From assembly GCA_963801185.1 (NCBI GenBank), contig CAWDDW010000001.1, forward strand, positions 41,939-105,938: a DNA stretch of 64,000 bases, written 5' to 3'. Origin of the DNA: an uncultured Acidimicrobiaceae bacterium. GTDB taxonomy: Bacteria > Actinomycetota > Acidimicrobiia > Acidimicrobiales > Bog-793. Position numbers and translations under genes: made by a program. Below are positions 9,121 to 47,983 of this stretch, piece after piece (the first letter of the stretch is position 1; each line of letters opens with the position of its first letter). Under the pieces are notes generated by a model. It had not been told where the DNA came from. It saw only the letters and a program-made list of their open reading frames with translations, and made no database searches.

Positions 9121-9145
9121 GTGTGCGGTGCCGGTTCCAGCCAAC

Positions 9146-23155: not shown

Positions 23156-25242
<2,087 letters not shown>

Positions 25243-25244
25243 GC

Positions 25245-30387: not shown

Positions 30388-31710
30388 GTGAAGGTTGCAG
30401 TGTTCGGTCTTGGCTACGTCGGCACCGTGACAGCGGCATGTCTTGCTGCTCGCGGCCACGACATCTGGGGGGTCGACATCGACGAGCACAAGGTTGCGAT
30501 GGTCGGCGATGGCCGCACTCCGGTGCTGGAGCCCGGTTTGGGGGAACTGATTGCCGACGCTGTCGCGAGCGGAGCGCTCCACGCGACGACGAGCGTTGCG
30601 GAGGCCCTCACCGGCGCCGAGGTCTCGATCGTCTGCGTTGGGACTCCCTCATCTGCCAATGGCGGCACCGACCTCAGCTTCGTCACGCGGGCGACAGAGG
30701 AGATCGCTCAAGTGTTGGCGGCAGCGCCAGAGGGCTCTCCGTTTCATGCGGTCGTCGTCCGGTCGACCGTCCCGCCCGGTACCGTCGACGAGATCGTGGC
30801 TCCAGTGCTCCGGGCCACCGGCGCTCGAGTCGGTACGGCGATGTGCCCCGAGTTCCTCCGCGAGGGCTCTGGAGTCGCAGACTTCTTTGACCCACCCTTC
30901 ACGGTCGTGGGAACCGGGGACCCGGACGTCGCGGAGCTCCTCTCGTCGCTGTTCGGGTTCCTCGACCAACCTGTGCGGGTCGTGGCCGTTCGGACAGCGG
31001 AGTCGCTCAAGTACGCCTGCAACGCCTTTCACGCCGTGAAGGTCGCCTTCGCGAACGAGATCGGTCGCGTCTTCCGTCCCCTTGGGATCGACTCTCGTGC
31101 GGTTATGGAGCTCTTCTGCGAGGACCGGCGCCTCAACATCTCGCCGAACTACCTTCGACCCGGCTTTGCGTTCGGCGGTCCATGCCTGCCGAAGGACCTG
31201 CGGTCACTTCTTCATTCGGCGCGGATGAGCAGCGTCGACCTTCCCTTGCTCGCCGGCGCGATGTCGTCGAACGAGCTCGTGCTCGCAGATGTCGTGAACC
31301 GCATCACCGCCGAGGGTGGTTATGGCGAGGGTGGCATGACAGTGGCTCTTCTCGGCCTGAGCTTCAAGATGTCGAGCGACGACCTGCGGGAGAGCCCGAG
31401 CGTGCGGTTGGCGGAGACGCTCATCGGCAAGGGCTACAGGGTGCGGATCCACGACCCGGTCGTGAAGCCGTCGCAGCTGATCGGGACGAACCGCCGCTAC
31501 GTCGAATCGAGGCTTCCTCACCTTCAGCACCTGCTGGCGGACAGCGCCTCGGAGGCTCTGGCGGGGGCGGAAGTCGCTGTGGTTTCCTCGTCGACCGAGC
31601 CCGTCATCGCAGCGCTGCTTGCCGCCGCCCCCTCGCGCATCTTGGATCTCACCGGTCGTCTCGGCGCCGGTGTCGAGGCCCTTCAAGGCTACGAAGGTGT
31701 CGGATGGTGA
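30388..31710 (+). CDS. Nucleotide-sugar 6-dehydrogenase, AlgD-like (probable GDP-mannose 6-dehydrogenase)
   Basis: 'MKVAVFGLGYVGTVTAACLAARGH', 'VCVGTPS', 'PEFLREG', 'YLRPGFAFGGPCLPKD', 'LGLSFKMSSDDLRESP', and C-terminal '..EGVGW'. It is colinear with Pseudomonas AlgD as I recall it. The substrate assignment is an inference. Confidence 0.75.
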   Translation: MKVAVFGLGYVGTVTAACLAARGHDIWGVDIDEHKVAMVGDGRTPVLEPGLGELIADAVASGALHATTSVAEALTGAEVSIVCVGTPSSANGGTDLSFVTRATEEIAQVLAAAPEGSPFHAVVVRSTVPPGTVDEIVAPVLRATGARVGTAMCPEFLREGSGVADFFDPPFTVVGTGDPDVAELLSSLFGFLDQPVRVVAVRTAESLKYACNAFHAVKVAFANEIGRVFRPLGIDSRAVMELFCEDRRLNISPNYLRPGFAFGGPCLPKDLRSLLHSARMSSVDLPLLAGAMSSNELVLADVVNRITAEGGYGEGGMTVALLGLSFKMSSDDLRESPSVRLAETLIGKGYRVRIHDPVVKPSQLIGTNRRYVESRLPHLQHLLADSASEALAGAEVAVVSSSTEPVIAALLAAAPSRILDLTGRLGAGVEALQGYEGVGW

Positions 31711-31729
31711 AGGTGCGTCATCTCTTCGG

Positions 31730-32979
31730 GTGGGGGACAGCGTGTCCAGCGGCAAGCACGTCCTGATCATCGTCCAGAACCTGCCGGTCCCCTTCGATCG
31801 GCGCGTCTGGCTCGAATGCCAAGCCCTTCGGGACGCTGGGTACGACGTTTCCGTCGTGTGCCCGAAGGGCCCTGGTGACCCAGGTCTCGAAGTGGTCGAT
31901 GGCGTGACCTTGTACAAGTACCGCCAGTACGCCGGGCGTGGGGGAGGGGTCGGTTACCTCCTCGAGTACGCCTATTCGTTCGGGGCAACCGCCGCCCTCG
32001 TGAGGCGAGCGTGGCGCCGGCAGCGCATCGACGTGCTCCAGGCGTGCAATCCGCCCGACATCTTCTGGCCTCTTGGGTTGCTCTTCCGGCTGCTCGGCCG
32101 TGGACGGTACGTGTTCGACCACCACGACTTGTGCCCCGAGCTGTACGAGTCGAGGTTCCCGACCGCCAATCGAGTGCCGTACTGGGGCCTTCGCGCCCTT
32201 GAGTGGTGCACGTTCCGCTCCGCCGACCGCGTCATCTCCACGAACTCGTCGTACCGCGAGATCGCCCTTCTACGCGGCGGGAAGCAGCCCCACGAAGTGA
32301 CCGTCGTGCGAACAGGACCGGATGCCGTGCGCCTCCAACGCACTGAGCCCGACCCCGAACTGCGCCGCGGCCGGCGCTTCCTCGTCGCCTACATCGGTGT
32401 GATGGGTCCTCAGGACGGAGTCGACGTCGTGGTCCGGACGGCGGCCAAGATCGTCCACGACTGGGCGAGGGATGACGTCAGCTTTGCCGTGATGGGCTCA
32501 GGAGACTGTTTCGACGAGCTCGTGGCTCTGAGAGACGACTCGGTCTCGGAGACTTCGTCGACTTCATGGGACGAGTCCCCGACGATGTCGTCAAGCGTGT
32601 CCTGTCGACCGCTGACGTCGGGTTGTCTCCTGACCGGAAGAATCCTCTGAACGACGTCTCGACGATGAACAAGACCATGGAGTACATGGCCTTCTCACTC
32701 CCAACTGTCGCATTCGACCTGCGGGAGACCAGAGTGTCGGCCGGAGAGGCCGCGGCGTACGCCGAGCCGAACGAAGTGGAGAGCTTCGCGAGCGTTCTGG
32801 TCGATCTGTTGGACGACGAGCCTCGACGGCGCTCGATGGGCAAGCTGGCACGGGCCAGGGTCGAAGAGGAGCTGGCCTGGACACATCAACGGGATGCGTT
32901 CGTCGGCGTATACGACGGACTGCTGGCCGACTCGCCGCGCGCTCGAGCGGTACCGGCGTCGTCAGCTCCGCGCGGCTGA
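31730..32979 (+). CDS. Glycosyltransferase family 4; frame break near 32539 as sequenced
   Basis: 'HVLIIVQNLPVPFDRRVWLECQALRDAGYDVSVVCP' is a typical N-terminus. '...CFDELVALRDD' (ORF 31619..32650) continues as 'LGLGDFVDFMGRVPDDVVKRVLSTADVGLSPD...' (ORF 32566..32979). The start is GTG 31730 or 31742. The length is 1250 nt = 3n+2. Confidence 0.75.
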
Positions 32980-32983
32980 TCCG

Positions 32984-34895
32984 ATGTGCGGGATCGCCGG
33001 CTGCTATCAGCAGCCCGACGGGATAGGGCTCGCCAAGGCGATGAGCGAGCGAATCGCTCACAGGGGCCCCGACGCGGAGGGCCTTCACTCCTACAGCGAC
33101 GAGCGGGTCACCGTGCAGCTTGCCCACCGGCGACTCTCCATCATCGACTTGACGAGTGCAGCGGATCAGCCGTTCTCCAAGGATGGACTGGTGCTCTCGT
33201 ACAACGGGGAGCTGTACAACTACCGAGAACTGAGGAACGAGCTCGCGGGCTCGGGGGTACGTTTCGTCACCGCGTCTGACACCGAAGTCGTGCTCGAGGC
33301 CTGGCGGCGATGGGGATGGCGAGCACTGACCCGCTTCCGGGGCATGTTCGCTTTCGCACTCCTCGACGAGAGGACAGGTCAGCTGTTCCTCGCTCGCGAC
33401 CAGCTCGGGATCAAGCCGCTCTATCTGTTGCGGCGAGATGACGGGGTGGTGTTCTCGTCGGAGTTGAGAGGGCTGGTCGCGGCGCTCGGAAGCGAGCTGC
33501 GGATCGATCCCTCCGCACTCGTGGCATCGATGCTCTACTACTGGGTGCCCGACCAGCGCTGTTCAATCCGCAACGTCGAGAAGCTGCCGCCGGGGACATG
33601 TGCCGAGGTCTCCCCCGATGGATCAGTCCAGACGCACTCGTACTGGGACATCCGGGAGGTCGCGTCCGAGGCCGCCGCCGGGCCGCCGTCGGACCTCCGG
33701 GCGGTGGTCGAGGAGTCGGTCACCGCCCATCTCGTTGCCGACGTACCGGTGTCGAGCTTCTTGAGCGGCGGGCTCGACTCGAGCATCATCACGGTCCTCG
33801 CCAAGCGGGCGAACCCGGAGGTCGACGCCTACACCATCGGATTCAGGCCCGAGGACAACCGCCTCGAGGCGATGCCGGACGACATGACCTACGCCCGCAA
33901 AGTCGCCGCCCGGTATGGCGTGACCATGCACGAGATCGAGATCGCCCCGGACATAGCCGACCTGCTCCCTCGCATCGTCGACATCCTCGACGAGCCGATC
34001 GGGGACCCGGCAGCGATCAACACTTACCTCATGTGCCAAGCCGCTCGCGACGCAGGAGTCAAGGTCGTCTTGTCGGGGATGGGTGCCGACGAGCTCTTCG
34101 GCGGCTATCGCAAGCATCTGGCCTGCGTCGTGGCTGCTCGTTACCAACGGCTGCCGGCGATCTTGCGGAAACGGGTCGTGGAGGGTGCCGTCGGCAGGCT
34201 TCCGGTCACTGCGTTTGGGCACGGGCTGCGTTACGTCCGCTGGTCCAAGCGGTTCCTCACGTTCGCAGAGCTCGGAGAAGAGGAGGCATTCCGCCGCAGT
34301 TACACCCTGTACGACCTGCCGGAAGCTCGCTGAGCTGATCAGCCCGGACCTGAGCGGCCACGTCGGCGAGATCGCAGATGAGCATCGCCAGATCTATAAG
34401 GACAACTCGCTCGGGGATCACGTGAACCGGATGTGCCTCGCGGATGCCCGGCTGTTCCTGCCAGGGCTCAACCTCGCTTACACCGATCGAGCAAGCATGG
34501 CCGCGTCCACTGAGGTCCGGGTGCCCTTCGTCGATCCCGACGTTGTACGAGCGGCGTTCTCATTCGGCGGGCCGCAGAAGGTCTCTGGGCGCAAAGGCAA
34601 GCTTCCGTTGAAGCGCGCAGCCGAGGCCTGGCTGCCCGAGGAGATCATCCACCGCCCGAAAGCGTCCTTCGGCGCGCCGTTGCGGGCGTGGATGGCTCAC
34701 GACCTAAGTTCGATGGTCGACGACGTGCTGTTGTCAGGCGAGCTCGTCTCGTCGGGCTTCCTCGATCGGCGACCGCTCGAGCGGCTAGTCGCCGACGATC
34801 GCTCGGGGCGGGAGGATCGCTCGAAGCAGCTCTGGCAACTGCTGACGATGGAGCTCTGGGTCCGCAACATGGGCGCCCAGGGCGTCACCACCTGA
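32984..34895 (+). CDS. Asparagine synthase (glutamine-hydrolysing)-family amidotransferase (AsnB/WbpS-like); frame break near 34325 as sequenced
   Basis: Ntn nucleophile start 'MCGIAG', then 'YNGELYNYRELR' and the PP-loop 'SFLSGGLDSS'. '...SYTLYDLPE' (stop 34333) continues in the +1 frame as 'LAELISPDL...MCLADARLFLPGLNLAYTDRASMAASTEVRVPFVD...'. The length is 1912 nt = 3n+1. Confidence 0.85.
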
Positions 34896-34977
34896 TGAGG
34901 CCGCTTCTCAGGCCGGAACGGCCGCCGACGATAGCGACGGTGGGGCGTGGACGGCAACACTCCCCGGAGGGAAGAGG

Positions 34978-37181
34978 ATGAAACAAGTCGCACAGAACTA
35001 CCGGACCGGTGAGCTGACGGTGCTCGACGTCCCGCCGCCGACGTGTCGTCCCGGTGGCATCCTCGTCCGATCGCTCTACTCGCTCATCTCGACCGGCACA
35101 GAGGTCATGAAGGTGAAAGAGGCAAGGCTCTCTCTCGCCGGCAAGGCACGGGCCCGTCCTGAACAGGTACGCCAAGTGGTTGACACCGTTGTGCAACAAG
35201 GGCCGAGGGCGACCTACAAGAAGGTGATGACGCGCCTCGACTCCTACACCCCCCTCGGCTACTCGCTCTGCGGGGTCGTCGCGGAAGTGGGCGAAGGTGC
35301 CGGCGAGTTCAGGGTGGGCCAGCTCGTGGCGTGCGCCGGGAACGAGCACGCGCTTCACTCGGAGGTCAACTGGGTACCTACCAATCTCTGCGTGCCGGTG
35401 CCTGATGGCGTGGACCCGAGGCAGGCTGCCTTCGCGACGGTGGGGGCCATCGCGATGCACGGCGTCCGGCGCTGCGAGGCCCAGCTCGGTGACACGGCGT
35501 GTGTCATAGGCCTCGGGTTAGTCGGGCAGCTGGCTGTGCAGCTGCTGGTCGCGTCAGGAGTCGTGGTGGTCGGCCTCGACCCGGTGGAGGACCGGTGCCT
35601 GTTGGCAGAGCGGGCGGGTGCGCTCGCGTCCGCGCCGCCGACCGCCGACGGGCTCGACCGGGTGGAGCGTGCCCTGTCGGAGGCAAGCGGCGGGCTCGGG
35701 GCCGATCACATCCTCCTCGTCGCCGGCGGGTCCTCGAACGAACCAGTCGAAGCTGCGGCAAGACTCGCCGCGACAGGGCCCGCGTCGTCGACATCGGCAA
35801 GATCCGCCTCGACCTTCCCTGGAACGCCTACTACGAGAAGGAGCTTGACGTCGTCTTCTCGCGCTCGTACGGCCCGGGGCGCTACGACGAGCGATACGAG
35901 CTCGACGGCATCGACTATCCAGCCGGCTACGTGCGGTGGACCGAACGAAGGAACCTCGGCTGCTTCGTCGACCTTCTCGCGAGGGATTCTCTCGACGTCG
36001 AGTCGCTCGTCTCCCACGTCTTCCCGGTCGAGCGTGCGGTCGAGGTGTACGACCGCTTGAGCTCGGGCGAGCTCGGTGGCGTAGGGCTGCTGTTCGAGTA
36101 CGGGCCCGGTGAGCCGCCCGTCTCGCCCGAGGGGCGAGGTGAGACGATGACCGCCGGGTCACCGCCACGGGCGAGTGAGCCGAAGATCTCGCCTCGACCG
36201 GGTGGGGGGGTCCCGGTGGCCGGTGACCGGGTCCGCCTCGGCTTCATCGGTGCTGGGAATTACGCCTCGTCGATGCTCCTCCCGGTGCTCGCGGCCGCCG
36301 AGAACGTCGAGCTCCGTCACGTCGCCACGACTCGCTCGCTGACGGCCATGAACGCCCAACGGCGCTTCGGATTTGCCACCGTGAGCACGGACTCGACCGA
36401 GGTGCTCGGAGACGACTCGCTCGACGCCGTCTTCATCGTGACCCGTCACCGCTCGCATGCAGGCCTCGTCTGCCGGGCCCTCGAGGCCGGCAAGGCCGTG
36501 TTCGTGGAGAAACCCCTGGCGCTGTCCCTCGAGGAGCTCGACCGGATCCTCGACGTCGTGAGAGAGACGGGCAACGACCGCCTCATGGTCGGCTTCAACC
36601 GGCGTTTTGCTCCGCTTCTCGTCGACATGCGGGCGAGGTTCGCGCGCCCCATGGCCGGTGCCGTCGCCCGTTACGCCGTCAACGCCGGCTCGCTCTCCCA
36701 TACGAGCTGGTATGCGGACGAGCAGGAGGGGACGCGGTTCGTCGGCGAGGGTGGCCACTTCATCGACACCCTGAGCTGGTGGCTGGGCGCCCGCCCGCGG
36801 GAGGTCTCGGCCCTGCAGGGTCGCGACGCGAACGACCTCATGATCAACCTTTCCTTCGACAACGGGGCGATCGCCAGCCTCGCCTATGTCACGAACGGGA
36901 GTCGCCGGTTCCCGAAGGAGGTCTTCGACACAAGCGCGGGAGGACGGTCGGCCCGACTCGACAACTTCCGCCGTGCGACCGTGTGGGGCGGCGCCCCACG
37001 CCGCACGCGGTGGAGCTTCGGAGCGGTGGACAAGGGTCAGCGTCACATGCTCGAGGCGTTCGTGGGCGCGGTGCGCACGGGTGAGCCGATGCCGATAGAT
37101 CTCTCCTCGCTGGTGGACACCACCCGTGCGACGCTCGCCGTGCGCGACAGCCAAGTCTCTGGGCGGTCCGAGGAGCTGTGA
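34978..37181 (+). CDS. Bi-domain oxidoreductase (Zn-ADH/MDR-like N-terminus fused to Gfo/Idh/MocA C-terminus); frame break near 35769 as sequenced
   Basis: MDR part: 'LYSLISTGTE...', 'CVIGLGLVGQLAVQLL'. '...NEPVEAAARLA' continues in the -1 frame as 'RDRARVVDIGKIRLDLPWNAYYEKEL...'. Gfo/Idh/MocA part: 'RLGFIGAGNYA' and 'AGKAVFVEKPLA'. The length is 2204 nt = 3n+2. Confidence 0.75.
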
Positions 37182-39184
37182 CCGAGGGACGCCTGTGGTG
37201 GTACGCCCACCGTCTCGGGCGCATGTCGCCGGAGGAGGTGGTCTGGAGAGCCCACGACCAGGTCCTGCGCAGGACCTGGTCGAGACGCCAGGTCCTCCCC
37301 TCCTCGCAGCCCCGGAGATCGGTGCGCGTGAAAGGCGCCCCGAAATTCGCCACGCCACTTCCTTCCGGCTGTCGCGACCGTATCCCCGCCGAGGTTCGAG
37401 AAGGACTCGTAGCGGCGGCCGACGAGCTGCTCAAAGGGAGGTGGGAGGTGCTCGGGGTGGTGAGGACGGACCTCGCCGACCCCGACTGGTTCTTTGACCC
37501 GGTCACCGGGCGGAGAGCGGCGTCCGAGAAATACGCCTTCAACATCAACCACCGGTCCGAGGCTGAGGTCGGCAACGTCAAGCAACTGTGGGAGCTGTCA
37601 AGGCTCCAGCACCTGACGGTGCTGGCTGGGGCCTTTTTCGCCAGCGGGGAGGAGGCCTACGCGGAGGCGGTCGCCGCTCAGCTGTCGTCATGGTGGGCCG
37701 AGAATCCTTTCCTCTCGGGCATCCACTGGACGAGCGGCATCGAGCTCGGCGAGCGGCTCATCTCCTGGGTGTGGATCCGGCGCCTTCTCGACGAGTGGCA
37801 AGGAGCGGCCGCGCTGTTCGAAGCGAATGTCGATGCACGAGAGCAGGTGTACTGGCACCAGCAGTACCTCGCCGCCTTCAGGAGCCGGGGCTCGTCCGCC
37901 AACAACCACGTGATCGCGGAGGCCGCCGGGCAGCTCGTCGCGAGCTGCGCCTTCGATTGGTTCGAGGAGAGTGAGAAGTGGCGTGTGAGCGCTGCATCCT
38001 TGCTCGAGGGCGAGCTGTGCCTTAACACCTTCCCGAGCGGGCTCAACCGTGAGCAGGCCTCGGAGTATCACGGATTCGTCATCGAGCTGGCGCTCCTTGC
38101 CGCGGTCGAGTGCGACGCGTGTGGTCATCCGCTCGGCCCTGCTACCTGGAGCTTGCTCGCGACGATGCTGGACTGCGCAGCTGCCGTCGTCGACCAACAG
38201 GGCAGGCCGCCGCGCCAAGGAGACGGCGACGGAGGGCGGGCGTTGCTGGTCGATCCACCGACGGTCGACCGTGAGGCCTCGCTTCTCGCCACAGGGGCAG
38301 CGCTGGTGCAACCGGCGTCGTGGTGGCCAGCGACACGCCCGACCGCCATGAGCGTCGTCGTCGGAGGGCTCAGCGGTCGTGCCAGAGAGATCGAACAGAG
38401 GACGCCGGAACGCCCATCGCACTTCGGAGACGCCGGTCTGACGCTCCTTCGTTCCACGCCACGGCCTGACCAACCGGAGATCTGGTGCCGCTGCGACGGA
38501 GGTCCGCATGGCTACCTGTCGATCGCGGCGCACGCGCACGCCGATGCACTCTCGGTAGAGGTTCGCTACGGGGGAGTGGACATACTCGCTGATCCGGGGA
38601 CCTACTGCTACCACGGTGAGGCGCCTTGGCGCCGCTACTTCCGCTCGACGCTCGCACACAACACCATCGAGCTCGCTGGCGAAGATCAGTCAGTGTCGGG
38701 CGGTCCCTTCCTCTGGCTCTCCTCAGCGCACACGACCGGTGTCGAGGTCCTACCCGACGGCGACGGCCGACCGGTGCGATGGGCCGGGCAGCACGACGGG
38801 TACGAGCGTCTCACGCCTCCCGCTCGACACCATCGCAGTGTGGAGCTCGACGATCTCGGGCGCCGCCTCGACATTGTCGACCGGATCGACAGTGCCGGCA
38901 CGCATGTCATCCGGATGGCGTTCCACCTCGGGCCGGCCGTGCAGGTGGTGCTCGAGGGAGCCGTCGCCGACCTCACCTGGAGCGTCGGCACTGTGAGCGC
39001 ATCGGCGAGATTCGAGCTTCCCGCGGAGCTCGACTGGACTGCTCATCGCGGTGAGTCAGAACCGGTCCTCGGATGGTACTCCGATCGCTTCGGGAGAAAG
39101 GAACCGTCTATCTCCTTGCTCGGGGAGGGTTGCGCGATTCCAGGTTCCAGCGAATTGACCAGCTCTATCACGTTCTCGCCGTAA
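37178..39184 (+). CDS. Heparinase II/III-family (alginate-lyase-like) protein with no signal peptide
   Basis: 668 aa. It has an alpha/alpha-toroid-like N-terminal half ('WELSRLQHL', 'WTSGIELGERLISW', 'NNHVIAEAAG') and a C-terminal 'HAHADALSVEVRYGGVDILADPGTYCYH'-type motif. The start overlaps the upstream stop by 4 nt. The family call is from memory of the motif pattern. Confidence 0.6.
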   Translation: MTEGRLWWYAHRLGRMSPEEVVWRAHDQVLRRTWSRRQVLPSSQPRRSVRVKGAPKFATPLPSGCRDRIPAEVREGLVAAADELLKGRWEVLGVVRTDLADPDWFFDPVTGRRAASEKYAFNINHRSEAEVGNVKQLWELSRLQHLTVLAGAFFASGEEAYAEAVAAQLSSWWAENPFLSGIHWTSGIELGERLISWVWIRRLLDEWQGAAALFEANVDAREQVYWHQQYLAAFRSRGSSANNHVIAEAAGQLVASCAFDWFEESEKWRVSAASLLEGELCLNTFPSGLNREQASEYHGFVIELALLAAVECDACGHPLGPATWSLLATMLDCAAAVVDQQGRPPRQGDGDGGRALLVDPPTVDREASLLATGAALVQPASWWPATRPTAMSVVVGGLSGRAREIEQRTPERPSHFGDAGLTLLRSTPRPDQPEIWCRCDGGPHGYLSIAAHAHADALSVEVRYGGVDILADPGTYCYHGEAPWRRYFRSTLAHNTIELAGEDQSVSGGPFLWLSSAHTTGVEVLPDGDGRPVRWAGQHDGYERLTPPARHHRSVELDDLGRRLDIVDRIDSAGTHVIRMAFHLGPAVQVVLEGAVADLTWSVGTVSASARFELPAELDWTAHRGESEPVLGWYSDRFGRKEPSISLLGEGCAIPGSSELTSSITFSP

Positions 39185-39428
39185 TCACCTATGGAGGTAC
39201 AGACACGCTGTGTGCGCAACACGATCCCATCCTGCCGATAACCCAGGCCGTAGCCGGCCCTGACACGCGCACGGTCTCGGTCAGAGCGGCATACTTATGA
39301 AGATGTCTTGCGTTTCCAGCCGGCATGTCTCCGCGCGGTGCCGGAAGGACTGGCATAGCTCCGTGAACTTCGCGCCGAAGACTCCTGCTCGCCTCGAGCT
39401 TCTCGGGCACGTCCGAGGGCGAAGAGCC

Positions 39429-40322
39429 ATGATGGAAGAGGCCGAGATTCAATCATTCTGGGAATCGCACCCTTGCGGTGACGAGCTCCTCGGCGGCCTC
39501 GACCGCGCGTTCGAGGGGAACTACATAGCGTTCTTCGACGCGTACGACAAGGCGAGGTACGAGCTCGAATCCCACATTCCCAACTGCCTCGACGCGCTCA
39601 ACGTCAACGACAGGAAGGTGCTTGAAATCGGCCTTGGCCAAGGTGCCGAGTCCGAGCAGCTCATCCGCAGAGGTGCCCACTGGACCGGACTCGACCTGAC
39701 CAGGGAAGCTGTAGCCAGGGTGAAGACGCGCCTGCAGATTCGGGGGTTGAGCTACGACGACATCTGGCAGGGTTCGGTTCTTCGAATCCCGGCTGCTGAC
39801 GACGCCTTCGACATCGTCTTCTCTCATGGCGTGCTTCATCACGTGCCGGACATCGGGGCAGCTCAGAGCGAGATTCAGCGCGTGCTCAAGCCGGACGGAC
39901 GGCTCGTCGTGATGCTCTACGCACGGCGGTCGCTGAACTACCAGGTCGCCATCAAAGTCATACGCCGCGCGGTACTCCTTGCAGCGTGGCCTCTGCGCAA
40001 GCACATCACCTCCGGCATTCTTGCTACTCATCTGCGCAACGCAGAAAGTGAGGGTCTCGCCCACTACTTGCGCCTCGATCGGTTTATTCACGCCAGCACC
40101 GATGGGCCGGCCAGTCCGTTCGCAAGGGTGTATGACCTGTCGGAAGTGCAACGTGACTTCAAGTCGTTTGAAATCTCCCGCTGGCATAAGCACTTCATGC
40201 ACGCGCCGCCACTCCCGGTCCACGGACTCCCCGGCGGCCGGCTGATGGGATGGCACCTCTGGGTCGAGATGTCCCCGCGTTCCGAGGAGGCTCGGTCGAA
40301 TGGGTCGAATCGCTCGCGCTGA
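39429..40322 (+). CDS. Class I SAM-dependent methyltransferase
   Basis: Motif I 'VLEIGLGQGAES', then 'FDIVFSHGVLHHVPD' and 'LKPDGRLVVM'. I chose ATG 39429 ('MMEEAEIQSFWESHPCG') rather than the track start at 39297. Confidence 0.8.
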   Translation: MMEEAEIQSFWESHPCGDELLGGLDRAFEGNYIAFFDAYDKARYELESHIPNCLDALNVNDRKVLEIGLGQGAESEQLIRRGAHWTGLDLTREAVARVKTRLQIRGLSYDDIWQGSVLRIPAADDAFDIVFSHGVLHHVPDIGAAQSEIQRVLKPDGRLVVMLYARRSLNYQVAIKVIRRAVLLAAWPLRKHITSGILATHLRNAESEGLAHYLRLDRFIHASTDGPASPFARVYDLSEVQRDFKSFEISRWHKHFMHAPPLPVHGLPGGRLMGWHLWVEMSPRSEEARSNGSNRSR

Positions 40323-40547
40323 CAAGCGGGTGCCAATGTTCGGGTGATGACCGGAGACCGAGATGTCATCCAATGCCTTACTTCCCAAAGACAAGCTGAG
40401 AGTCTCTTCGGGCGCGGAAGTGTTTAGACATCGTTGCCTAGATCCCGGAGCGGCGTACCTTCACGGACTCGTAGCGCCCGCCCAGACTTCGCGCGGGAGG
40501 TCGGCCGTGGACGCGCGGAAGCGCTCCGCGCCCGGCCGACAGTCCCG

Positions 40548-41813
40548 ATGACACCGGCTACGCCGGGTCGCTCAAGGCCGCGACTCGCGGTGGCGTCGGG
40601 GCCGACCGGGGTGTCCCCTATGACGGTCGCGGCGGCAGCTTCGGAACATTACGACCTGCTGTGGCTCGTGGATGAGAGCGGTCCCGACCTCAGCCTCCAC
40701 GTGGCGCTATTAGGGCGACTTGGCCGAGTCGTCGAGCTCGGTGGTCTGTCCGGCTCGGAGGCGGCTGCCGTCCTAGCGGACTATCGGCCGGACGGCATCG
40801 CGACCTTCCATGACTTCGGCATGGTAAAGCTGGCCGAGATCGCTGAGCAGCTCAATCTCCCGTTTCACAAGCCAGCGGTGGCGGAACGCCTGGTCGACAA
40901 GTACGCCCAGCGTGAGGCGCTCATGGCGGGCGGCCTCGCGGTGCCGCGCTACGCCCCCGTGCCGCTTGTCCTCGACGACGATGCCCTGGCTGCACTCGAG
41001 GCTCGTGTCGGCTTTCCGGCCGTGCTCAAGCCCAGGAGCGGGACAGGCAGCCGGTACGTAGTCTCGGTGCCGACCTCCGGCGCGCTGGTGGAAGCGCTGG
41101 TGCAGAGGCGCCGAGATGGCCGGAACGACCCCCTCCTCCTGGAGGAGTTCATCGGGGAGGCGACGTCGCGCGACGCCCAGATCGGAGACATCGTCTCGGT
41201 GGAGAGCTACGTGAGCGCCGGCCGCGTGAGCAACATCGCTGTCACTGGACGCTTCGCGTTCGCCGAGCCGTTCCGCGAGACCGGTAACTTCATTCCAGCG
41301 GACCTGCCGGAGGCCGAGCGGACGGAGGTGCTGCAGCTCGCGACGGAGGCAGCACGCGCGCTCGGGGTCGAGACCGGGTGCCTACACACCGAGATCAAAC
41401 GGACCAAGGAGGGACCGCGCCTCGTCGAGATCAACGGGAGACCTGGCGGCGGGATACCGCAGATGCTCGCCCGCGTTTCCGATCTAAACCTCTTCCACGT
41501 CGCCTTCCAGCTCGCGCTCGGTGAGTCGCTGCCCGACCGGGACGTGGTCCCGACCGGCCGCGTCGTCTACCGGGCCATCGTCCAGCCGCCCACCTCTGCA
41601 CACCGCGTCGTGAGTGTCCAAGGCCTGGAGACAGTCGCGGAGCTCCCCGGCGTCGAGGAGGTCATCTTGAATCGCGGCCCTGGTCGGGTTGTGGACTGGC
41701 GGAACGGCTACCTCGAGTTCGTCTTCCTCGTCGACGGGACCGTCGCCGACATCGACGAGCTCCGCGTGATCGACCGGCGGCTGCGTGACGCGGTCGTGAT
41801 CGTCTACGAGTAG
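40548..41813 (+). CDS. ATP-grasp domain protein (carboxylate-amine ligase type)
   Basis: 'DKYAQREALMAGGLAVPRY', 'GFPAVLKPRSGTGSRYV', 'LLLEEFIGE', 'CLHTEIKRTKEGPRLVEINGRPGGG'. The start is ATG 40548 or 40620. Confidence 0.75.
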   Translation: MTPATPGRSRPRLAVASGPTGVSPMTVAAAASEHYDLLWLVDESGPDLSLHVALLGRLGRVVELGGLSGSEAAAVLADYRPDGIATFHDFGMVKLAEIAEQLNLPFHKPAVAERLVDKYAQREALMAGGLAVPRYAPVPLVLDDDALAALEARVGFPAVLKPRSGTGSRYVVSVPTSGALVEALVQRRRDGRNDPLLLEEFIGEATSRDAQIGDIVSVESYVSAGRVSNIAVTGRFAFAEPFRETGNFIPADLPEAERTEVLQLATEAARALGVETGCLHTEIKRTKEGPRLVEINGRPGGGIPQMLARVSDLNLFHVAFQLALGESLPDRDVVPTGRVVYRAIVQPPTSAHRVVSVQGLETVAELPGVEEVILNRGPGRVVDWRNGYLEFVFLVDGTVADIDELRVIDRRLRDAVVIVYE

Positions 41814-41827
41814 CGTCTCTCGGCGAT

Positions 41828-43662
41828 ATGGAGTTCGAGGAGCCACAGGGGCGGGCGGTGGCAGTCTGGTTTGGCCCCGAGGAGTCCCCCCTGTTCGGCC
41901 TTGTGAATTCGGGTGGCCGGGACATCCGCGGCGCCGTCATCCTTTGTCCGCCGCTAGGTCGGGAAGAGAAGGATTGCTACTCAACTTTCGCTCAGCTGGC
42001 TGCTGCCCTTGCCCGGGTTGGATTTCTGGCGCTCCGCTTCGACTACCGCTCGACGGCGGACTCATTCGACCGCTCCAGCACCGACGACAGCGGATGCGGT
42101 CTCCTCGACGACGTCCGGAGTGCCATCGACTTCGTCCGCGACCTCGGAGCGCCCAGCGTCGCGCTGGTCGGGATGAGGATGGGCGCGCTTCTCGCGGGGC
42201 TCGTGAGCGCGACTGAGCCCGTGGAAGCCGTCGTGATGTGGGACCCGTGCTCAAGCGGGCACGCGTTCGTTCGCGAGCAGCGAATGCTCAGCCTGCGCAT
42301 CCCGGTCGACCACTCCGATACCGATCACATCCCGGACTTTCATCTCCCCGTGGCGATGTTGCGGGAGCTGTCGACGATGAAGATGGATGAGACGACTGCA
42401 TCGCTGGCGGGCCGAGTTCTCCTACTCACTCGAGACGACGGGCTGGAAGATCACCGGTTAGTCGGGCATCTCACGTCACCCCGCACAGAACACCGGAAGG
42501 TGGCCGGGCAGCCTGAACTGCTCGACCTTCCGACTCCCTTTCAGGTCGTTCCAGCGGAAACGGTGGCGCTGATTGCCTCATGGATTGACGCCGCGATGCC
42601 AGTCGTCACTCGTGCCGTCACGCTGCCGACGGCGGACGAGGTCACCGTACCCCTGCCACCCGCGAAGGACGATCGGCCCCGGTCGGAAGCGGGTCGCCCG
42701 ACGGCCGTGGTGGAACGCGCACTGCGATTGGGAAGCCTCGGGCTCTTCGCGATCTCGACAGAGCCAAACCGAGGTCATAAGGGACCGACCTGCATTTTCG
42801 TCAGCGTGGCGAACGAGCATCGCATCGGCCCTGGACGGCTCTGGGTGGAGCTCAGCCGCCGTCTTGCGGCGTATGGCTTCCACTCCGTCAGGCTCGACCT
42901 GAGTGGTTACGGCGACAGTCCAGCCCGTGGCGCTCCTCCGAGCGTCTACTCCATCTCCGCGGTGGACGACGTAGTCGAGGCCGCTCGTTCGCTTCGACCC
43001 GACGATCCCTCCGACGTGCTGTTGTTCGGCCTTTGCTTCGAGCGGGTACCACGTGCTGGAGGCGGCCACCCGCTTGCACCCTCGAGCCGTTTGCGCATTG
43101 AACCCAACCGTCTCGTTCTCGGCGCCGGAGACGCGATCCGGCTTGCCACCCGACCCCCGGCGCCGGTTCTTCCTTCCGCAAACGACGTTCAGCGCGAAGA
43201 AAGACAGCCCCTTGTCGTTTCGCCGAGTCGAGCAGCGCTATCCGGCGATCAAGTGGCTCGGGGCTCGCTTCCCCGTCTTCATGCTGAGGTTTCGTGGGAT
43301 CGGGCGGCGGGCGATCATACGGATGAGCCGACCCTACGAGACGTTGGTCTGGCTATCGGCAACCCGACCCGGGCACTCTCGCAGCGGACCCGCTCAGCAG
43401 GTCTCGGCGCTCGTTCGATCCGGCACGAACGTGTTGCTGATCTGTGGGCCGGACGAGATGCAGCCTTTCCGGCGCGCCACTGCGCGGTCCGAGTGGCCGG
43501 GAACACTTGAGCTTCGAGGTGATCCCTGCACTCGACCACGCGCTGCGTCGGCCCCGGGACCGAGACGAGGTGACCCGACTCATTCTCGAGCGTGCGCGCG
43601 AGTCTTTTCGAGCTGAGCGACGGGACCCTGCGGCTCGACGGACCACCCAGTCTCACGCTTGA
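41828..43662 (+). CDS. Tandem alpha/beta-hydrolase-fold protein; two frame breaks (~43037 and ~43500) as sequenced
   Basis: The N-terminal half reads '..AVILCPPLGREEKD...VALVGMRMGALLAG..'. The second half reads '..TCIFVSVANEHRIGPGRLWVELSRRLAAYGFHSVRLDLSGYGDS..VLLFGLC', then 'SSGYHVLEAATRLHPRAVCALNP..' (ORF 43053..43616), then 'EHLSFEVIPALDHALRRPRDRDEVTRLILE..' (ORF 43444..43662). The length is 1835 nt = 3n+2. Confidence 0.65.
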
Positions 43663-43858
43663 GCTGGTCGGCGGCGCATCTCTGACAATGCCCGAGCCTC
43701 ACTGCAATCGCGCCGGTTTCCCTACATCCGTCTGCGCCCGTGCCGGTCCACACCATGACGCTAGCCAGCGCCTAAGGTCCCCTGAGAAAATTGCTCAAGT
43801 CTCTCGCGTGGTGGGCCGATGAGTTTGAGGAAGCTTGCCTAGCCCTCGGAGGCAACAC

Positions 43859-46615
43859 ATGGAACGACGAAAGATTATTCGTCGTGGCACGCGGCTGACG
43901 CTGCTCGCGGCGGTCGCCGTCGTCACGCCTCTTGTCGCGTTCGGGCAGGCCTCTAACGCCTCTCTCACCTATGAGAGCCCTAGGCTCGCCGGACCAGCTC
44001 TGACGTTCGTCTCGACCAGCACCTCGACTCCTTCAACGGCGGTGCCGAAAGGGACTTCGAAGGGCGACGTGGTCGTCGTTGTCGTGGAAACCCTGGGCAC
44101 GAGCTCGGTCACCTGCCCAAACCCCTGGAAGCGAGTGCTGGACTCGACTAACGGCTCGAGGACGCGTCTCGCCGTCTGTCTCGAAGCCGATGCGGGGACC
44201 ATCACGCCTCCAGCGCTGGCTGTCAGCCCGGCGAGCCAGGTCTCGATGATCACCATGACGTTTTCCGGCGTGGCCGCCGAGCGGTCTGTCGTGAAAGATG
44301 CCGCGGCGAAAGGCGCCGTCTCCCCGAGCCTGTCTCTTCCCACCGGGCACGTCGCCCTCCTGTTCAGCGAGGGCATCAATCTGGCTTGGGCCCCGCCGAC
44401 CAAAGGCGCCTCCGACCTCAAGAGCAGGTTGAAGCCGCTCGAGACCGTGACCAATCCGGGGCTCTCGGAGATCAACGTGGCGAAAAGCCTCGACGCGAAC
44501 CCCGGTGCCACGCCGACCTTTACTTGGAGCGGGAGCCGCCCAGCACAAGCCCTCCTCTCAAGTACCTTGGCGCTCAGGGACGCCACGGATCCACCTCCCG
44601 TCACGACCACTACCACCTCCACGACGACTACGGTCCCACCGACCACAACATCCACCAGCACCACGTCGACCAGCACGACGACTTCCACCAGCACCACGTC
44701 CAGCACCTCGACGACGACTACCACAACGACGGCGCCCGGCGGCGGCGGTGCGCCAACCACACCCCCGGCCGAGATCTGCGGCAACTCGAGCGTGCTCGAC
44801 GGTCCATCGAAGGCCCCTGCCGGGGCAATCACCGTCCCTGCTGGCAACAACACGACTGCCGCATCGGATGGTGACTACGACAAAGCCGGGGCAACTTACT
44901 ACTTCGCTAAAGGCACGCACACCATCGAGACGCAGATCATCCCCGGCAAGAACTCGACATACATCGGGGCGCCAGGAGCGATCATCGATGGCGGGGGGTC
45001 CCAGAACGGGCAGTTCACCCAGACAGCGACAGGCGTCACAATCGAGTACCTCACGATCCAGAACTACTGGACGTCTGAAGCCCAGGACGTAGTCAACCCG
45101 GACGGCAGCACTGGGTGGAAGATCGAATACGACACCATCGGACCGAACGAGGCTGGCGAGCACGGCACCGGTCAGGACGATGATGGCGGCTACGGCCTCG
45201 GGATCGGCAGCAACGACACCGTCGAGTACAACTGCATCACGGGCAACTCAGAGGGTGGCTTCAACGCCGACGGCGGCAGGGGCAAACTTCTCACGGGTGT
45301 CACTATCTCCAACAACGAGATCAGCCAGAACGGGCTGGGAACCTACCCCGACGGCGGGAACAACCCGTACCACTGTGGCTGTTCGGGCGGGGGAAAGATC
45401 TTCTGGTCGCTCAACGTCACGTTCACAGACAACTACGTCCACAACAACTACAACGCTGGGATCTGGGCCGATTTCAACAACGCCGGGGCGAACATCTCCT
45501 ACAACTACATCTCCTCGAACTGGGGTGAAGGCATCTTCTACGAGGCGAGCTACAACGCCAACATCTCCGATAACACCCTTGTCGGGAATGGCTGGGCGTC
45601 TGACGGGGCGTGGCCGAGTGGGGGGGCATACCAGTGCTACAACGATGTGAGCTGCACCAACGGTCTCGGGCCGGTCACCGGTTCGGGCGGCGGCTTCCCC
45701 TATGGCGCAATCTATCTTCCGAGCTCGGGTGGGAACGGCAACATCCCATCCAACTACTCCGGTCATCTCTATGTCGAGAACAACGTGCTCACGAACAACT
45801 TCGGAGGCATCGTCGCCTACACCGATCCGACTCGGTTCTCGGGCGGACCATTCCAGTGCAACGCGCCCCTGCAGGACGCCAACTCGACCTATTACCAGAA
45901 CTGGGATCAGGAGCAGGCGAGCGACGCTGTCGTGAACGGGACCACCGCGGTCACCTCGGCCACCGGCTTTGAGACGTTCTTCCAGAACGGCACGAGCGGG
46001 CAGACCAGCACCTGCTCGAACCCCGGACCAGTCACGACCCCAACCGTCGGCATGTACGTCTACGGGACCGACATCCCTGCCGGCGACACGGTCGCTCGTG
46101 TCACGAGCGCCAACTCCATCACGCTAACTACCGCTGCGACCGGCAGCGGTACCGTCTCCATGACGCTGTCGACGCCGGGAGGGTGCGGCCTGTACGACCT
46201 GTACGGATCGTCGCCCGGCGCTATAACCGGATCACCCCCTGAGGACTATTTTGACAACTGCATCTGGGCTTCGACGAACCTGATCGTCTCAGGAAACCAG
46301 CTCAGTATGGCGTCAGGCTCGGTGACCGGCTGCACCTCGGCTGCGCTCTGCGGGGTCATAGCAGCTATCTCCTACGACGCCGGGATCGACGCATGGTGGC
46401 GTATCTACCAGCCGTACGAGGTGGACAACATTGCCGAGTCTGGCAGTTTGCTCGACAACGTATGGTCCGACAACACCTACACTTGGACCGGCACGGGAGG
46501 GTCGTCCGCCTGGCAGTTCGAAGCCGGCTCACAAGGTCGCTCTGGAAACGTTACCTTCTCCCAATGGCAATCATCGCCAAACAGTCAGGACGCCGGGAGC
46601 ACCTTCACGTCATAG
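43859..46615 (+). CDS. Secreted right-handed parallel beta-helix protein with a poly-Thr/Ser linker (polysaccharide lyase, hydrolase or epimerase-like)
   Basis: GGAGG lies 6 nt upstream of ATG 43859. Signal peptide 'MERRKIIRRGTRLTLLAAVAVVTPLVAFGQASNA'. The linker is 'PPPVTTTTTSTTTTVPPTTTSTSTTSTSTTTSTSTTSSTSTTTTTTTAPGGGG'. Repeated beta-helix rungs follow: 'VTISNNEISQNG', 'NNYNAGIWADFNNAGANISYNYISSNWGEGIFYEASYNANISDNTLVGNGW', 'LYVENNVLTNNFGGIVAY'. Confidence 0.7.
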   Translation: MERRKIIRRGTRLTLLAAVAVVTPLVAFGQASNASLTYESPRLAGPALTFVSTSTSTPSTAVPKGTSKGDVVVVVVETLGTSSVTCPNPWKRVLDSTNGSRTRLAVCLEADAGTITPPALAVSPASQVSMITMTFSGVAAERSVVKDAAAKGAVSPSLSLPTGHVALLFSEGINLAWAPPTKGASDLKSRLKPLETVTNPGLSEINVAKSLDANPGATPTFTWSGSRPAQALLSSTLALRDATDPPPVTTTTTSTTTTVPPTTTSTSTTSTSTTTSTSTTSSTSTTTTTTTAPGGGGAPTTPPAEICGNSSVLDGPSKAPAGAITVPAGNNTTAASDGDYDKAGATYYFAKGTHTIETQIIPGKNSTYIGAPGAIIDGGGSQNGQFTQTATGVTIEYLTIQNYWTSEAQDVVNPDGSTGWKIEYDTIGPNEAGEHGTGQDDDGGYGLGIGSNDTVEYNCITGNSEGGFNADGGRGKLLTGVTISNNEISQNGLGTYPDGGNNPYHCGCSGGGKIFWSLNVTFTDNYVHNNYNAGIWADFNNAGANISYNYISSNWGEGIFYEASYNANISDNTLVGNGWASDGAWPSGGAYQCYNDVSCTNGLGPVTGSGGGFPYGAIYLPSSGGNGNIPSNYSGHLYVENNVLTNNFGGIVAYTDPTRFSGGPFQCNAPLQDANSTYYQNWDQEQASDAVVNGTTAVTSATGFETFFQNGTSGQTSTCSNPGPVTTPTVGMYVYGTDIPAGDTVARVTSANSITLTTAATGSGTVSMTLSTPGGCGLYDLYGSSPGAITGSPPEDYFDNCIWASTNLIVSGNQLSMASGSVTGCTSAALCGVIAAISYDAGIDAWWRIYQPYEVDNIAESGSLLDNVWSDNTYTWTGTGGSSAWQFEAGSQGRSGNVTFSQWQSSPNSQDAGSTFTS

Positions 46616-46671: not shown

Positions 46672-46694
46672 GGCGCTACGCGAATGAGTGGGGA
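46672..46694. repeat. IS terminal inverted repeat at the transposase 3' side
   Basis: 'ggcgctacgcgaatgagtgggga'. The transposase stop codon (46676-46678) lies inside it. Confidence 0.8.
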
Positions 46695-47983
46695 GGACTC
46701 GTCCGGATCCTCGGTGGTGAGGGACGCCGCGGCCAGCTGACACCGCCGGTGTGGAGCAACACCCTGAGTCGGTAGTGGCTGAAGGTTCGAAAGCCGTTCC
46801 CGGCCCGCTTCACCTTCTTCACACAGAGGTTCATCGCTTCGGTCGGTCCGTTCGAGGCGCCGGTGCGGTGGTGGTTCAAGATCTCCTCGCGCCATCGCTT
46901 GAGGGTGTGACCGAGCGAGCGGATCTCGGCCACCTCGTCCTCGAGACAGCCGGCGATCGCCTTGTCGAGAAGGAGGGCAGCGGTCTCGAGATCGTCGGTG
47001 AGATAGACGTCGCGGACCGACTCCTTCGCGAGCCAGGCACCGAGGAGCTCGTCGTTCGGGTCGCCCATCCTGAGGCCGAGCATCATCCGGTCGTGGCCTT
47101 TCTCGTCGAGGCGCTCGGCCCCCGACAAGAGCAGCTTCCGGATCTTGTAGAGCGGATCGCCTTTCCTGCCGCGGTGCCCGGTCAGCTCGTTCTGGACCCG
47201 TCGTCGCACCTTGTCGACACAGCGGTTGGCGACCCGGACGACATGGAACGGATCGGCGACCCGCACGACATGGTCAAGGTGCGGGCTGAGCCCCGCCCGG
47301 TAGCTCTCGGCCAGGTCGGTCGCGACGACGCCGATGCCACCGAGCCACGCCGGATCGGCTCCGGCACACCATCTCCGCAGGTCAGCGGCAGTGTTCCCCT
47401 GCAAGATGTCGATCACCTTGTGACGCTCGAGATCGACGAGGCCAGTCGCGTACAGCGTGCGGTGCGTGCGGTTCGCCTTCAAGAAGGAGGTCTCGTCGAC
47501 ACCGAGCGAGGAGACCTCGCCGACGCGGTCCGGGTCGTCGACAAGGGGACGGCCGTGCCGCTCGACGGCCGACATCACGGTCCACCAGCAGACCCCGAGC
47601 TCGTCGGCGAGCCCGCTCACGGGCCGTGCGAGCTCACCGACCTGGCGACAGGCCTCCTCGCCGACGCGTACGGTGAGCACGGCCCGCTCCGGTACGTGCT
47701 CGGAGGTCTCGGTCCAGGTGCGCGTCGGGCACTCGCGCATCCCACAGCGCCAGCGGCGCTTCGACCACACAAGGCGCGTCGGGCGACCGAAGCAGGCGAG
47801 ATCCCGGATCTCGAGGCGCATGCGGTCGTGCGCTTCGGCCTTCACACCACATGCTGTGCACCACGCCGCGACGTCGAGCGTCTCGATCGAGATGACGACT
47901 TCCGACTCGGTCTCGTGCACACCAGTGATGCGGAAGCCGCGCAGTCCAAGGATCGCTTCCGCGAAGCCAGTACCGTCGTGCAT
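46676..47983 (-). CDS. ISL3-family transposase
   Basis: N-terminal zinc-ribbon/HTH region '..CTACGVKAEAHDRMRLEIRDLACFGRPTRLVWSKRRWRC..C', and catalytic core '..LGVDETSF...TLYATGLVDLERHKVIDILQGNTAADLRRW...VATDLAESYRAG...VADPFHVVRVANRCVDKVRRRVQNE'. Confidence 0.9.
   Translation of the reverse strand: MHDGTGFAEAILGLRGFRITGVHETESEVVISIETLDVAAWCTACGVKAEAHDRMRLEIRDLACFGRPTRLVWSKRRWRCGMRECPTRTWTETSEHVPERAVLTVRVGEEACRQVGELARPVSGLADELGVCWWTVMSAVERHGRPLVDDPDRVGEVSSLGVDETSFLKANRTHRTLYATGLVDLERHKVIDILQGNTAADLRRWCAGADPAWLGGIGVVATDLAESYRAGLSPHLDHVVRVADPFHVVRVANRCVDKVRRRVQNELTGHRGRKGDPLYKIRKLLLSGAERLDEKGHDRMMLGLRMGDPNDELLGAWLAKESVRDVYLTDDLETAALLLDKAIAGCLEDEVAEIRSLGHTLKRWREEILNHHRTGASNGPTEAMNLCVKKVKRAGNGFRTFSHYRLRVLLHTGGVSWPRRPSPPRIRTSPPHSFA

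Follow-up and report, generated by a model that had tools for sequence, protein, structure and literature searches.

The window analysed here, by which we mean the whole 64-kb stretch of DNA from an uncultured Acidimicrobiaceae bacterium (about 65% GC), carries a long exopolysaccharide (EPS) locus from about 28.5 kb onward, preceded by the housekeeping genes polA, rpsA, coaE, uvrB and uvrA and by an Opp-type ABC transporter. Pfam scans of the open reading frames (ORFs) of the window identified in the EPS locus a priming sugar transferase, a UDP-glucose dehydrogenase (UGDH), several glycosyltransferases of families GT4 and GT2, an AsnB-like amidotransferase, a bi-domain oxidoreductase, a heparinase II/III-like protein, Wzy, Wzz, a flippase and chain-length determinants. 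Because the locus encodes UGDH, uronic acids are expected from it. Between the heparinase-like gene (37178-39184) and a gene for a secreted beta-helix protein lie the three genes that we studied, a methyltransferase (MT), an ATP-grasp ligase (AG) and a tandem alpha/beta-hydrolase (HYD). All three are on the + strand, as reported in an earlier note on this DNA, which had proposed them as a candidate module adding amino-acyl or ester groups to the polymer.

Table 1 Features of the window discussed in the text (positions in the window)
Feature	Position	Strand	Basis
EPS block: UGDH, GT4, AsnB-like amidotransferase, bi-domain (ADH_zinc + GFO/IDH) oxidoreductase, heparinase II/III-like protein	30388..39184	+	Pfam
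MT, class I S-adenosylmethionine (SAM)-dependent methyltransferase, 297 aa	39429..40322	+	Pfam Methyltransf_11
AG, ATP-grasp ligase of predicted L-amino-acid-ligase type, 421 aa from the likely start	40548..41813	+	Pfam ATP-grasp_4, profile, AlphaFold2 (AF2) fold
HYD, tandem alpha/beta-hydrolase, true product 610 aa	41828..43662	+	NCBIfam models, AF2, sister assembly
HYD N-terminal domain, residues ~1-256, putative pseudo-hydrolase	41828..42595	+	Conservation at nucleophile and His positions
HYD C-terminal domain, residues ~293-610, predicted active half	42704..43662	+	Cys-His-Glu conservation
Extra T directly after the Cys403 codon, first HYD frameshift, GCTCGAGC motif	43037	+	Comparison with L001
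Extra T, second HYD frameshift, GAGCTCGAG motif	43513	+	Comparison with L001
Secreted right-handed beta-helix protein	43835..46615	+	Pfam Beta_helix

HYD had been described as a 611-aa protein with two hydrolase-fold halves. The two halves were borne out: both matched alpha/beta-hydrolase models in sequence searches, and the AF2 model (mean predicted local distance difference test score, pLDDT, 82.5; predicted TM-score 0.84) contained two alpha/beta-hydrolase domains. The length was not, since the frame of the gene is broken twice in the window and the intact protein has 610 residues. This intact protein (P0121), known from a sister assembly considered below, was used to analyse HYD. Among NCBIfam models, residues 20-150 best matched hydr2_PEP and residues 305-428 hydr1_PEP, at scores (70.0 and 61.2 bits) far under the respective curated cutoffs of 202.75 and 168.45.

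The two halves differed in the conservation of their catalytic positions among 200 non-identical family members. At the nucleophile position of the N-terminal half, Arg was found in 182 members and Ser in none (Arg117 in the window, codon 42176-42178), while the putative His position was occupied by Gln in 176 (Gln228 in the window). In another comparison within the family, G115, R117, G119 and the stretch W138-D139-P140 were invariant. This conservation indicates that the alpha/beta-hydrolase domain of the N-terminal half is without catalytic activity. The C-terminal half, on the other hand, is predicted to be active, with a Cys-His-Glu triad at the canonical positions: of the 200 members, 178 have Cys and 22 have Ser as the nucleophile (Cys403, codon 43034-43036), His570 (43537-43539) is present in 178 of 181, and at the acid position, Glu543 (43455-43457), 136 members have Glu and 41 have Asp, i.e. 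an acidic residue in 177 of the 200. The same Cys and His were kept in the homologues from Rhizobium, Mycetohabitans, Tsukamurella and Shinella, in which a Ser in the N-terminal half was likewise absent. No signal peptide was found in the HYD sequence, and the protein is therefore predicted to be cytoplasmic. Clustering at 50% identity leaves 747 representatives of this large family at E ≤ 1e-30, and its members extend over Acidimicrobiia, Mycobacteriales, rhizobia, Azospirillum, relatives of Burkholderia and others.

The neighbours of HYD homologues fell into two groups, genes for aminoacyl carrier-protein chemistry and genes for glycan synthesis. The counts given here and below for metagenomic neighbourhoods refer to the best 80 of more than 500 relatives per scan, with flanks of ±10 kb and many contigs ending early, and were obtained by tblastn or with crude ORF calls based on GC at third codon positions; because of this they are lower bounds. 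Among the HYD metagenome loci of at least 9 kb, 18 of 41 contained a carrier protein and 13 of 41 an enzyme able to load it. Glycan genes were present in 20 of the 41, and in 13 of these 20 the 10-kb flanks held no carrier protein. Among 55 annotated plasmids and chromids from cultured bacteria that encode a HYD homologue, 35 had an annotated amino acid--[acyl-carrier-protein] ligase (aa:CP ligase) no further than 25 kb from it, and in 25 of the 55 the distance was at most 10 kb. An operon made up of an acyl carrier protein (ACP), an acyl-CoA dehydrogenase-like protein, an aa:CP ligase, a DUF1839 protein, a GH2 protein and HYD was found in Azospirillum (lipoferum 4B, L176) and Mycetohabitans (endofungorum, L171), and again in Rhizobium (sp. 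NLR16a p3, L170), where a GT4 gene is inserted between GH2 and HYD.

The two groups of neighbours also occurred together. In Tsukamurella tyrosinosolvens (L172), HYD closes an EPS operon that comprises a priming transferase, four glycosyltransferases and a flippase-like gene and also holds an ACP, an aa:CP ligase and a phosphopantetheinyl transferase. In Shinella, the genes around HYD encode a flippase, glycosyltransferases and AsnB, together with an ACP and an adenylate-forming enzyme with TIGR03098 as its best model. Moreover, HYD is fused to GT4 in P0146 (L085, 10001-12640), P0148 (L084, 2874-6017) and P0230, and to a carrier-protein domain in P0189. Other long multi-domain forms, of about 1060-1184 aa, are P0386, P0429, P0447 and P0479, and a separate set of HYD loci (L112-L115) encodes a fatty acyl-AMP ligase-like enzyme, an ACP and a distant pyridoxal phosphate (PLP)-dependent decarboxylase. 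Small ORFs upstream of the HYD-GT4 fusions (L084, L085) were considered as carrier proteins and rejected, since the G-x-T/D-S motif is absent from them and the ORFs seem spurious. A 'conserved' cluster of small ORFs (c18) that emerged from the first clustering was likewise dismissed as antisense noise.

The EPS block of the window provided a further link between HYD and glycan synthesis. Proteins 65-75% identical to its UGDH, GT4 and AsnB are encoded in three other loci (L085, L102 and L122), each time beside HYD, and its oxidoreductase and heparinase-like gene are also present in L085 and L102. The HYDs of L085, L102 and L122 are 47%, 46% and 34% identical to that of the window and belong to three subclades, and none of the three loci contains AG, MT or a carrier protein. 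Since the same block thus stands beside divergent HYDs in loci devoid of AG, this comparative evidence makes HYD an independent, recurrent component of the EPS pathway and AG an addition in the lineage of the window. Taken as a whole, the UGDH-GT4-AsnB-oxidoreductase-heparinase block is kept at 59-75% protein identity across several uncultured Acidimicrobiia (L085, L102, L122, L087).

AG appears from its sequence and its predicted fold to be an ATP-grasp enzyme of the L-amino-acid-ligase type, with a corresponding predicted activity. Its longest ORF spans 40434-41813 and the record in the sister assembly starts at GTG 40590 (407 aa); the true start is likely ATG 40548, because homologues align from there. 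The protein matched Pfam ATP-grasp_4 (E = 2.8e-10), and a profile built from 18 diverse homologues matched the L-amino acid ligase BL00235 (3VOT) over residues 70-421 with E = 2.8e-36, as well as BacD/YwfE (3VMM/3WNZ; about 1e-23, 4e-23 for BacD) and RizA (4WD3). The AF2 model (pLDDT 90.2) had YwfE/BacD (3WNZ) as its best Foldseek match (E = 1.3e-26, TM 0.86). In profile and in fold, the resemblance covers essentially the full length, including the C-terminal domain. The motifs H-T-E and E-x-N-G-R-x-G-G-G are invariant in the 18 homologues (H266, T267, E268, E280, N282, G283, R284 and G286-288); these catalytic and Mg-binding residues align with HTE...EVGARIGG of BL00235, and the H-T-E and E-x-N-x-R-x-G-G motifs are shared with the L-amino acid ligases. 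AG differs from these enzymes in that its identity to them is about 17-22%, in that it scores 18.9 bits on Pfam LAL_C2, under the gathering score of 29.4 (although many homologues carry a precomputed PF18603 match), and in being paired with a tandem hydrolase in an EPS locus and not placed in a dipeptide-antibiotic cluster. The best match on annotated plasmids was just 38% identical (Streptomyces megaplasmids).

The pairing of AG with HYD is tight in the window, where 14 nt separate the stop of the former from the start of the latter, and among the five closest relatives of AG (about 58-61% identity), all of which have a HYD match 16-46 nt after the AG match. In this close clade a beta-helix gene follows in four of the five loci (L002, L003, L006, L091), and a flippase or GT4 is present in three of the five. 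The window's beta-helix protein is 40-46% identical to those encoded downstream of HYD in L002 and L003, and in L086 a beta-helix gene (12062-14551) also lies directly downstream of HYD; the beta-helix protein may belong functionally with AG-HYD. A beta-helix protein with a Thr/Ser/Pro-rich linker trails the hydrolase in every close relative with enough flank, at 15386-19495 in L002 (three tandem copies) and at 11822-13288 in L003. The closest relatives of the AG-HYD pair also carry an aa:CP ligase (NF005479, 388 bits, above the cutoff) together with its carrier protein, as seen in L002 and L006, while the adenylation enzyme of L003 scored 214 bits on the DltA subfamily model, below the 476-bit cutoff.

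In its wider family, AG keeps different company. A scan with one genome per species retrieved 583 relatives, and the best 80 came almost all from metagenome-assembled genomes (MAGs) of Acidimicrobiia and other Actinomycetota from soil or peat. Within 10 kb of AG, a MetA-like homoserine O-acyltransferase was encoded in 60 of 81 loci, a MetY-like PLP enzyme in 57, a flavoprotein of about 600 aa with an NAD_binding_9 domain in 57, a DltA-like adenylation enzyme in 43, a carrier protein in 38, the tandem hydrolase in 36 and a phosphopantetheinyl transferase in 28. Each of the glycan probes (heparinase-like, UGDH, GT4s, AsnB, beta-helix) matched only 0-3 of the 81. Many of these genes form a conserved and apparently undescribed cassette in the Acidimicrobiia among the AG-anchored loci (L007-L083, for instance L031, L034, L044, L062, L067 and L068), which comprises a luciferase-like monooxygenase, the ATP-grasp ligase, the MetA-like and MetY-like enzymes, the NAD_binding_9 flavoprotein of about 600 aa, an aldo-keto reductase, the tandem hydrolase, an adenylation enzyme and a GNAT protein. 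The best reading of these neighbourhoods would be that the AG-HYD pair derives from a widespread cassette acting on carrier-protein-tethered amino acids.

These findings suggested a scheme that we favour, though we rate it slightly below an even chance: HYD would be an acyltransferase passing a thioester-bound (amino)acyl group to a glycan, and AG would make or extend the substituent. A thioester donor, which in the relatives would be a phosphopantetheinyl carrier protein loaded by an aa:CP ligase or a DltA-like adenylation enzyme, would charge Cys403 of HYD with an aminoacyl or acyl group. HYD would then hand the group to a hydroxyl or an amine of a cytoplasmic, lipid-linked repeat unit containing uronic acid, built by the neighbouring glycosyltransferases, before its export. 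AG, for its part, would most likely link two amino acids, through the carboxylate of the first and the amino group of the second. We infer the donor, the acceptor, the direction of the reaction (transfer or hydrolysis) and the substrates of AG from what is observed, namely gene structure, assignment to folds and families, conservation of catalytic residues, domain fusions and neighbourhood statistics. The decoration of the polymer with acyl or aminoacyl groups proposed in the earlier note thus survives as the best reading for HYD, in view of its fusions to GT4 and a carrier protein, its glycosyltransferase and flippase neighbours and the conserved EPS block; for the three genes as one module it does not.

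Several observations weigh against this scheme. Searches of the 64-kb window by tblastn, with family hidden Markov models (HMMs; two for the carrier protein) and by Pfam scans of gene-like ORFs of at least 200 aa detected neither a carrier protein nor a phosphopantetheinyl transferase, an aa:CP ligase or an adenylation enzyme. In the 83 AG loci other than those of the close clade, HYD is adjacent in two and a MetA-like gene in 55; beyond that clade, AG hardly ever occurs in a glycan locus, and because its wider family sits with MetA- and MetY-like genes, a family context that points to a homoserine- or methionine-related small-molecule pathway, it may serve such a pathway. AG is not needed for the role of HYD in the orthologous EPS locus L102, which has HYD without AG. 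The esterases and lipases that are the fold neighbours of HYD are silent on transfer versus hydrolysis. Finally, no characterised member of the AG or HYD family was found in the literature searched.

The proposed action of HYD has parallels in known systems. In Dlt D-alanylation, DltA loads the amino acid on DltC, after which it is esterified to teichoic acid. The scheme for HYD is similar in that a carrier-loaded amino acid would end up esterifying a glycopolymer; the difference is that in Dlt the transfer is carried out by DltB (a protein of the MBOAT family) with DltD, outside the membrane, whereas HYD is a Cys-type tandem alpha/beta-hydrolase. The homoserine O-acetyltransferase MetX, the PHA synthase PhaC and the mycolyltransferase Ag85 are acyltransferases of the alpha/beta-hydrolase fold, which take their substrate from thioester donors, form an acyl-enzyme on the elbow nucleophile (Cys in PhaC) and transfer the acyl group to a hydroxyl. 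With these the analogy is mechanistic, through the common fold and the proposed acyl-enzyme. HYD differs from them in its extra N-terminal domain, presumed dead, and sequence and fold searches of the PDB gave no specific match of HYD to MetX, PhaC or Ag85.

The order of the two halves of HYD, hydr2_PEP-like then hydr1_PEP-like, recalls the XrtA/PEP-CTERM EPS cassette, which consists of hydrolase 2 (TIGR03101), hydrolase 1 (TIGR03100), an acyl-CoA ligase (TIGR03098) and an ACP. The Shinella relative described above, with its ACP, TIGR03098-best enzyme and AsnB-like gene in an EPS cluster, comes close to it. Yet, in HYD the two halves are fused in one protein; because it scores under the curated cutoffs and lacks the two-gene architecture, we did not file it as an exosortase-associated hydrolase. 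Some HYD relatives have an ACP and an AMP-ligase, whereas the scans of the window found neither of these, and no exosortase was present among its Pfam-scanned ORFs. AG is not a member of the cassette. To our knowledge, the NCBIfam/TIGRFAM descriptions assign no function to the XrtA cassette either.

On annotated replicons, HYD homologues usually have an aa:CP ligase nearby, in contrast to the window, in which tblastn and HMMs found neither ligase nor carrier protein. The aa:CP ligases are described as similar to seryl-tRNA synthetase (Mocibob et al. 2010, cited through PMC9437257), and a passage of that 2022 review still calls their biological role unknown. Because of this reported lack of a role, HYD can be said to share their genomic context but no known function. 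The literature on exosortase hydrolases, aa:CP ligase operons, DUF1839, Atu2573 and bll0957 gave no link to glycans or to HYD, within an incomplete coverage that is no proof of novelty.

We also considered a wider version of the scheme, which we regard as rather unlikely: the tandem Cys-hydrolase would be the missing downstream enzyme of the aa:CP ligase systems, transferring the aminoacyl group from the carrier protein to a product, glycan or glycolipid, of the GT4 next to it or fused with it. In the lineage of the window, AG would have replaced or complemented the carrier-protein loader, and amino acids or dipeptides would be placed on a uronic-acid EPS by a route independent of a carrier.

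HYD might instead be a true hydrolase, i.e. an esterase or thioesterase that deacylates the polymer or that edits or releases carrier-bound intermediates, with AG acting independently. Its closest solved folds are esterases, lipases and feruloyl esterases, alpha/beta-hydrolase thioesterases are the usual partners of carrier proteins, and HYD is often alone in glycan loci, with the 13 of 41 cases mentioned above having no carrier protein within reach. Yet, its fusions to GT4 and to a carrier protein suit a build-up step better than a clean-up. A Cys nucleophile, present in 89% of the members, is moreover typical of thioester-transfer chemistry, as in PhaC, and the predicted cytoplasmic location also speaks against this explanation, which we consider doubtful.

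The neighbourhoods of the wider AG family, with their frequent MetA-like, MetY-like, NAD_binding_9, adenylation and carrier-protein genes and their near lack of glycan genes, could mean that AG-HYD is the remnant or satellite of a pathway to a diffusible small molecule of peptide-like nature, and that its position in the EPS locus is incidental. The closest solved relatives of AG, which make dipeptide antibiotics or dipeptides, would fit such a pathway. We judge this to be unlikely, since in the clade of the window's AG the whole cassette adjoins beta-helix, flippase or GT4 genes, since HYD is independently linked to glycan genes in many lineages and by fusion, and since both AG and HYD keep every family-invariant residue.

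The model of the earlier note, in which AG amide-links an amino acid to the C6 carboxylate of a hexuronate while HYD and MT add ester and methyl groups, all three forming one module, appears improbable. It can draw on the UGDH of the locus, from which uronic acids are expected, and on a precedent: the C-terminal domain of Cj1438 (Cj1438C), an ATP-dependent glucuronate amidoligase of the Campylobacter jejuni capsule (PMC11800379), is the only characterised uronate amidoligase that our literature search found and, like AG, an ATP-grasp enzyme from a polysaccharide locus making uronic acids. Cj1438C is, however, TupA-like, whereas AG gave no Pfam match to ATPgrasp_TupA at E ≤ 0.01 and is a stand-alone, full-length homologue of L-amino acid ligases. 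Nor is an association with glycan loci conserved: homologues of AG are seldom found there, and the orthologous EPS loci L085, L102 and L122 do without it. AG is therefore not counted among the uronate amidoligases of the Cj1438C type, and it probably does not amidate the uronate. The AsnB-like amidotransferase already present in the block is a more conventional candidate for the formation of uronamides. That homologues might lie mainly outside glycan loci had been named beforehand as evidence against the model, and for the AG family this is what the counts revealed.

The idea of a single module also failed for MT. The protein is a class I SAM-binding methyltransferase (Pfam Methyltransf_11, 78.4 bits versus a cutoff of 21.2) with 2882 homologues, which reach 62-75% identity in MAGs of Acidimicrobiales, so that its conservation far exceeds that of AG and HYD, for which identity to the next relatives is 58-61%. 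No MT homologue was found in any of the 81 AG-anchored or the 80 HYD-anchored loci. The three MT neighbourhoods sampled, on which its context is based, are all EPS loci devoid of AG and HYD, with genes for Wzy, Wzz, heparinase-like, bi-domain oxidoreductase, beta-helix, GT4 and priming-transferase proteins. MT is thus, as far as these loci indicate, a regular gene of Acidimicrobiales EPS loci that stands alone, outside the AG-HYD pair. Searches of the PDB and NCBIfam recovered the generic SAM-binding core and no substrate-specific family or structure; O-methylation of a sugar is probably its function, as a reasonable guess. The earlier statement that none of the three genes resembles a standard EPS component therefore did not hold for two of them, MT being regular in such loci and the halves of HYD finding their best, though sub-cutoff, matches among exosortase-A-associated models.

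The frameshifts in HYD were traced by comparison with the sister assembly GCA_052143955.1 (L001), which is 99.95% identical over 16.2 kb and in which all genes of the stretch are intact. In the window, HYD spans 1835 nt, a length not divisible by 3, and its longest ORF has 560 aa (41828-43510). Removal in silico of T43037 and T43513 yielded a protein exactly equal to the sister copy, P0121. The two sequences differ at eight positions (32538, 34323, 35630, 35768, 39400, 43037, 43513 and 43593), by six 1-nt indels and two substitutions, and the genes for GT4 (32538), the AsnB-like protein (34323) and the oxidoreductase (35768) are also frameshifted in the window and intact in L001. All eight differences lie inside GAGCTC, CTCGAG or GCGCGC palindromes, motifs that make up about 2.5% of the aligned region. 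For this reason we attribute the frameshifts, from the sequence comparison, to systematic base-calling errors at specific motifs and not to pseudogenisation; it is by coincidence that the first insertion in HYD adjoins the Cys403 codon. The motifs are probably methylated and the base-calling error linked to this methylation, a pattern that hints at a host methylating GAGCTC, CTCGAG and GCGCGC sites.

Decay of these genes to pseudogenes with no present function, which the frameshifts in HYD and several neighbours and an ISL3 transposase 60 nt downstream of the beta-helix gene might have suggested, is highly improbable and was rejected in view of the intact sister assembly and the confinement of the differences to the three motifs, the more so as even the housekeeping gene uvrA looks split in the window and the corrected HYD equals P0121. 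In detail, uvrA (region 23156-28140) is divided into overlapping ORFs at 24792-26381 and 25966-28140, uvrB looks short at its C-terminal end, and at 25222 there is a GAGCTTCGAG string similar to the errors found in other parts of the window. These breaks, in a part over which there is no reference sequence, are probably further artefactual frameshifts.

Some other features of the window deserve mention. The ISL3-family transposase (46676-47983, - strand) interrupts the EPS locus, as it is placed between the beta-helix gene and the Wzy/Wzz genes. About 26 kb separate AG from the Opp-type oligopeptide/dipeptide ABC transporter upstream of it (8092-14016, - strand), which is made up of a family-5 binding protein and a pair each of ATPases and permeases and is probably a housekeeping system unrelated to AG. 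A scan of 38900-44000 for promoters and terminators found none, which is uninformative in such high-GC DNA.

The window alone adds less than the HYD family does, as the three-gene module proved not to be real and the apparent pseudogenes artefactual. The double link of HYD, to aminoacyl carrier proteins and to glycosyltransferases, provides a concrete, testable hypothesis for two systems that have long been unassigned, and this question can be addressed in culturable carriers of the operon such as Tsukamurella, Azospirillum, Rhizobium and Mycetohabitans. A confirmed function of HYD would connect the exosortase-associated hydrolases, the aa:CP ligases and the EPS loci of uncultured soil bacteria. 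If the proposed scheme is true, the HYD family would be a general device for placing amino-acid or acyl groups on bacterial surface polysaccharides.

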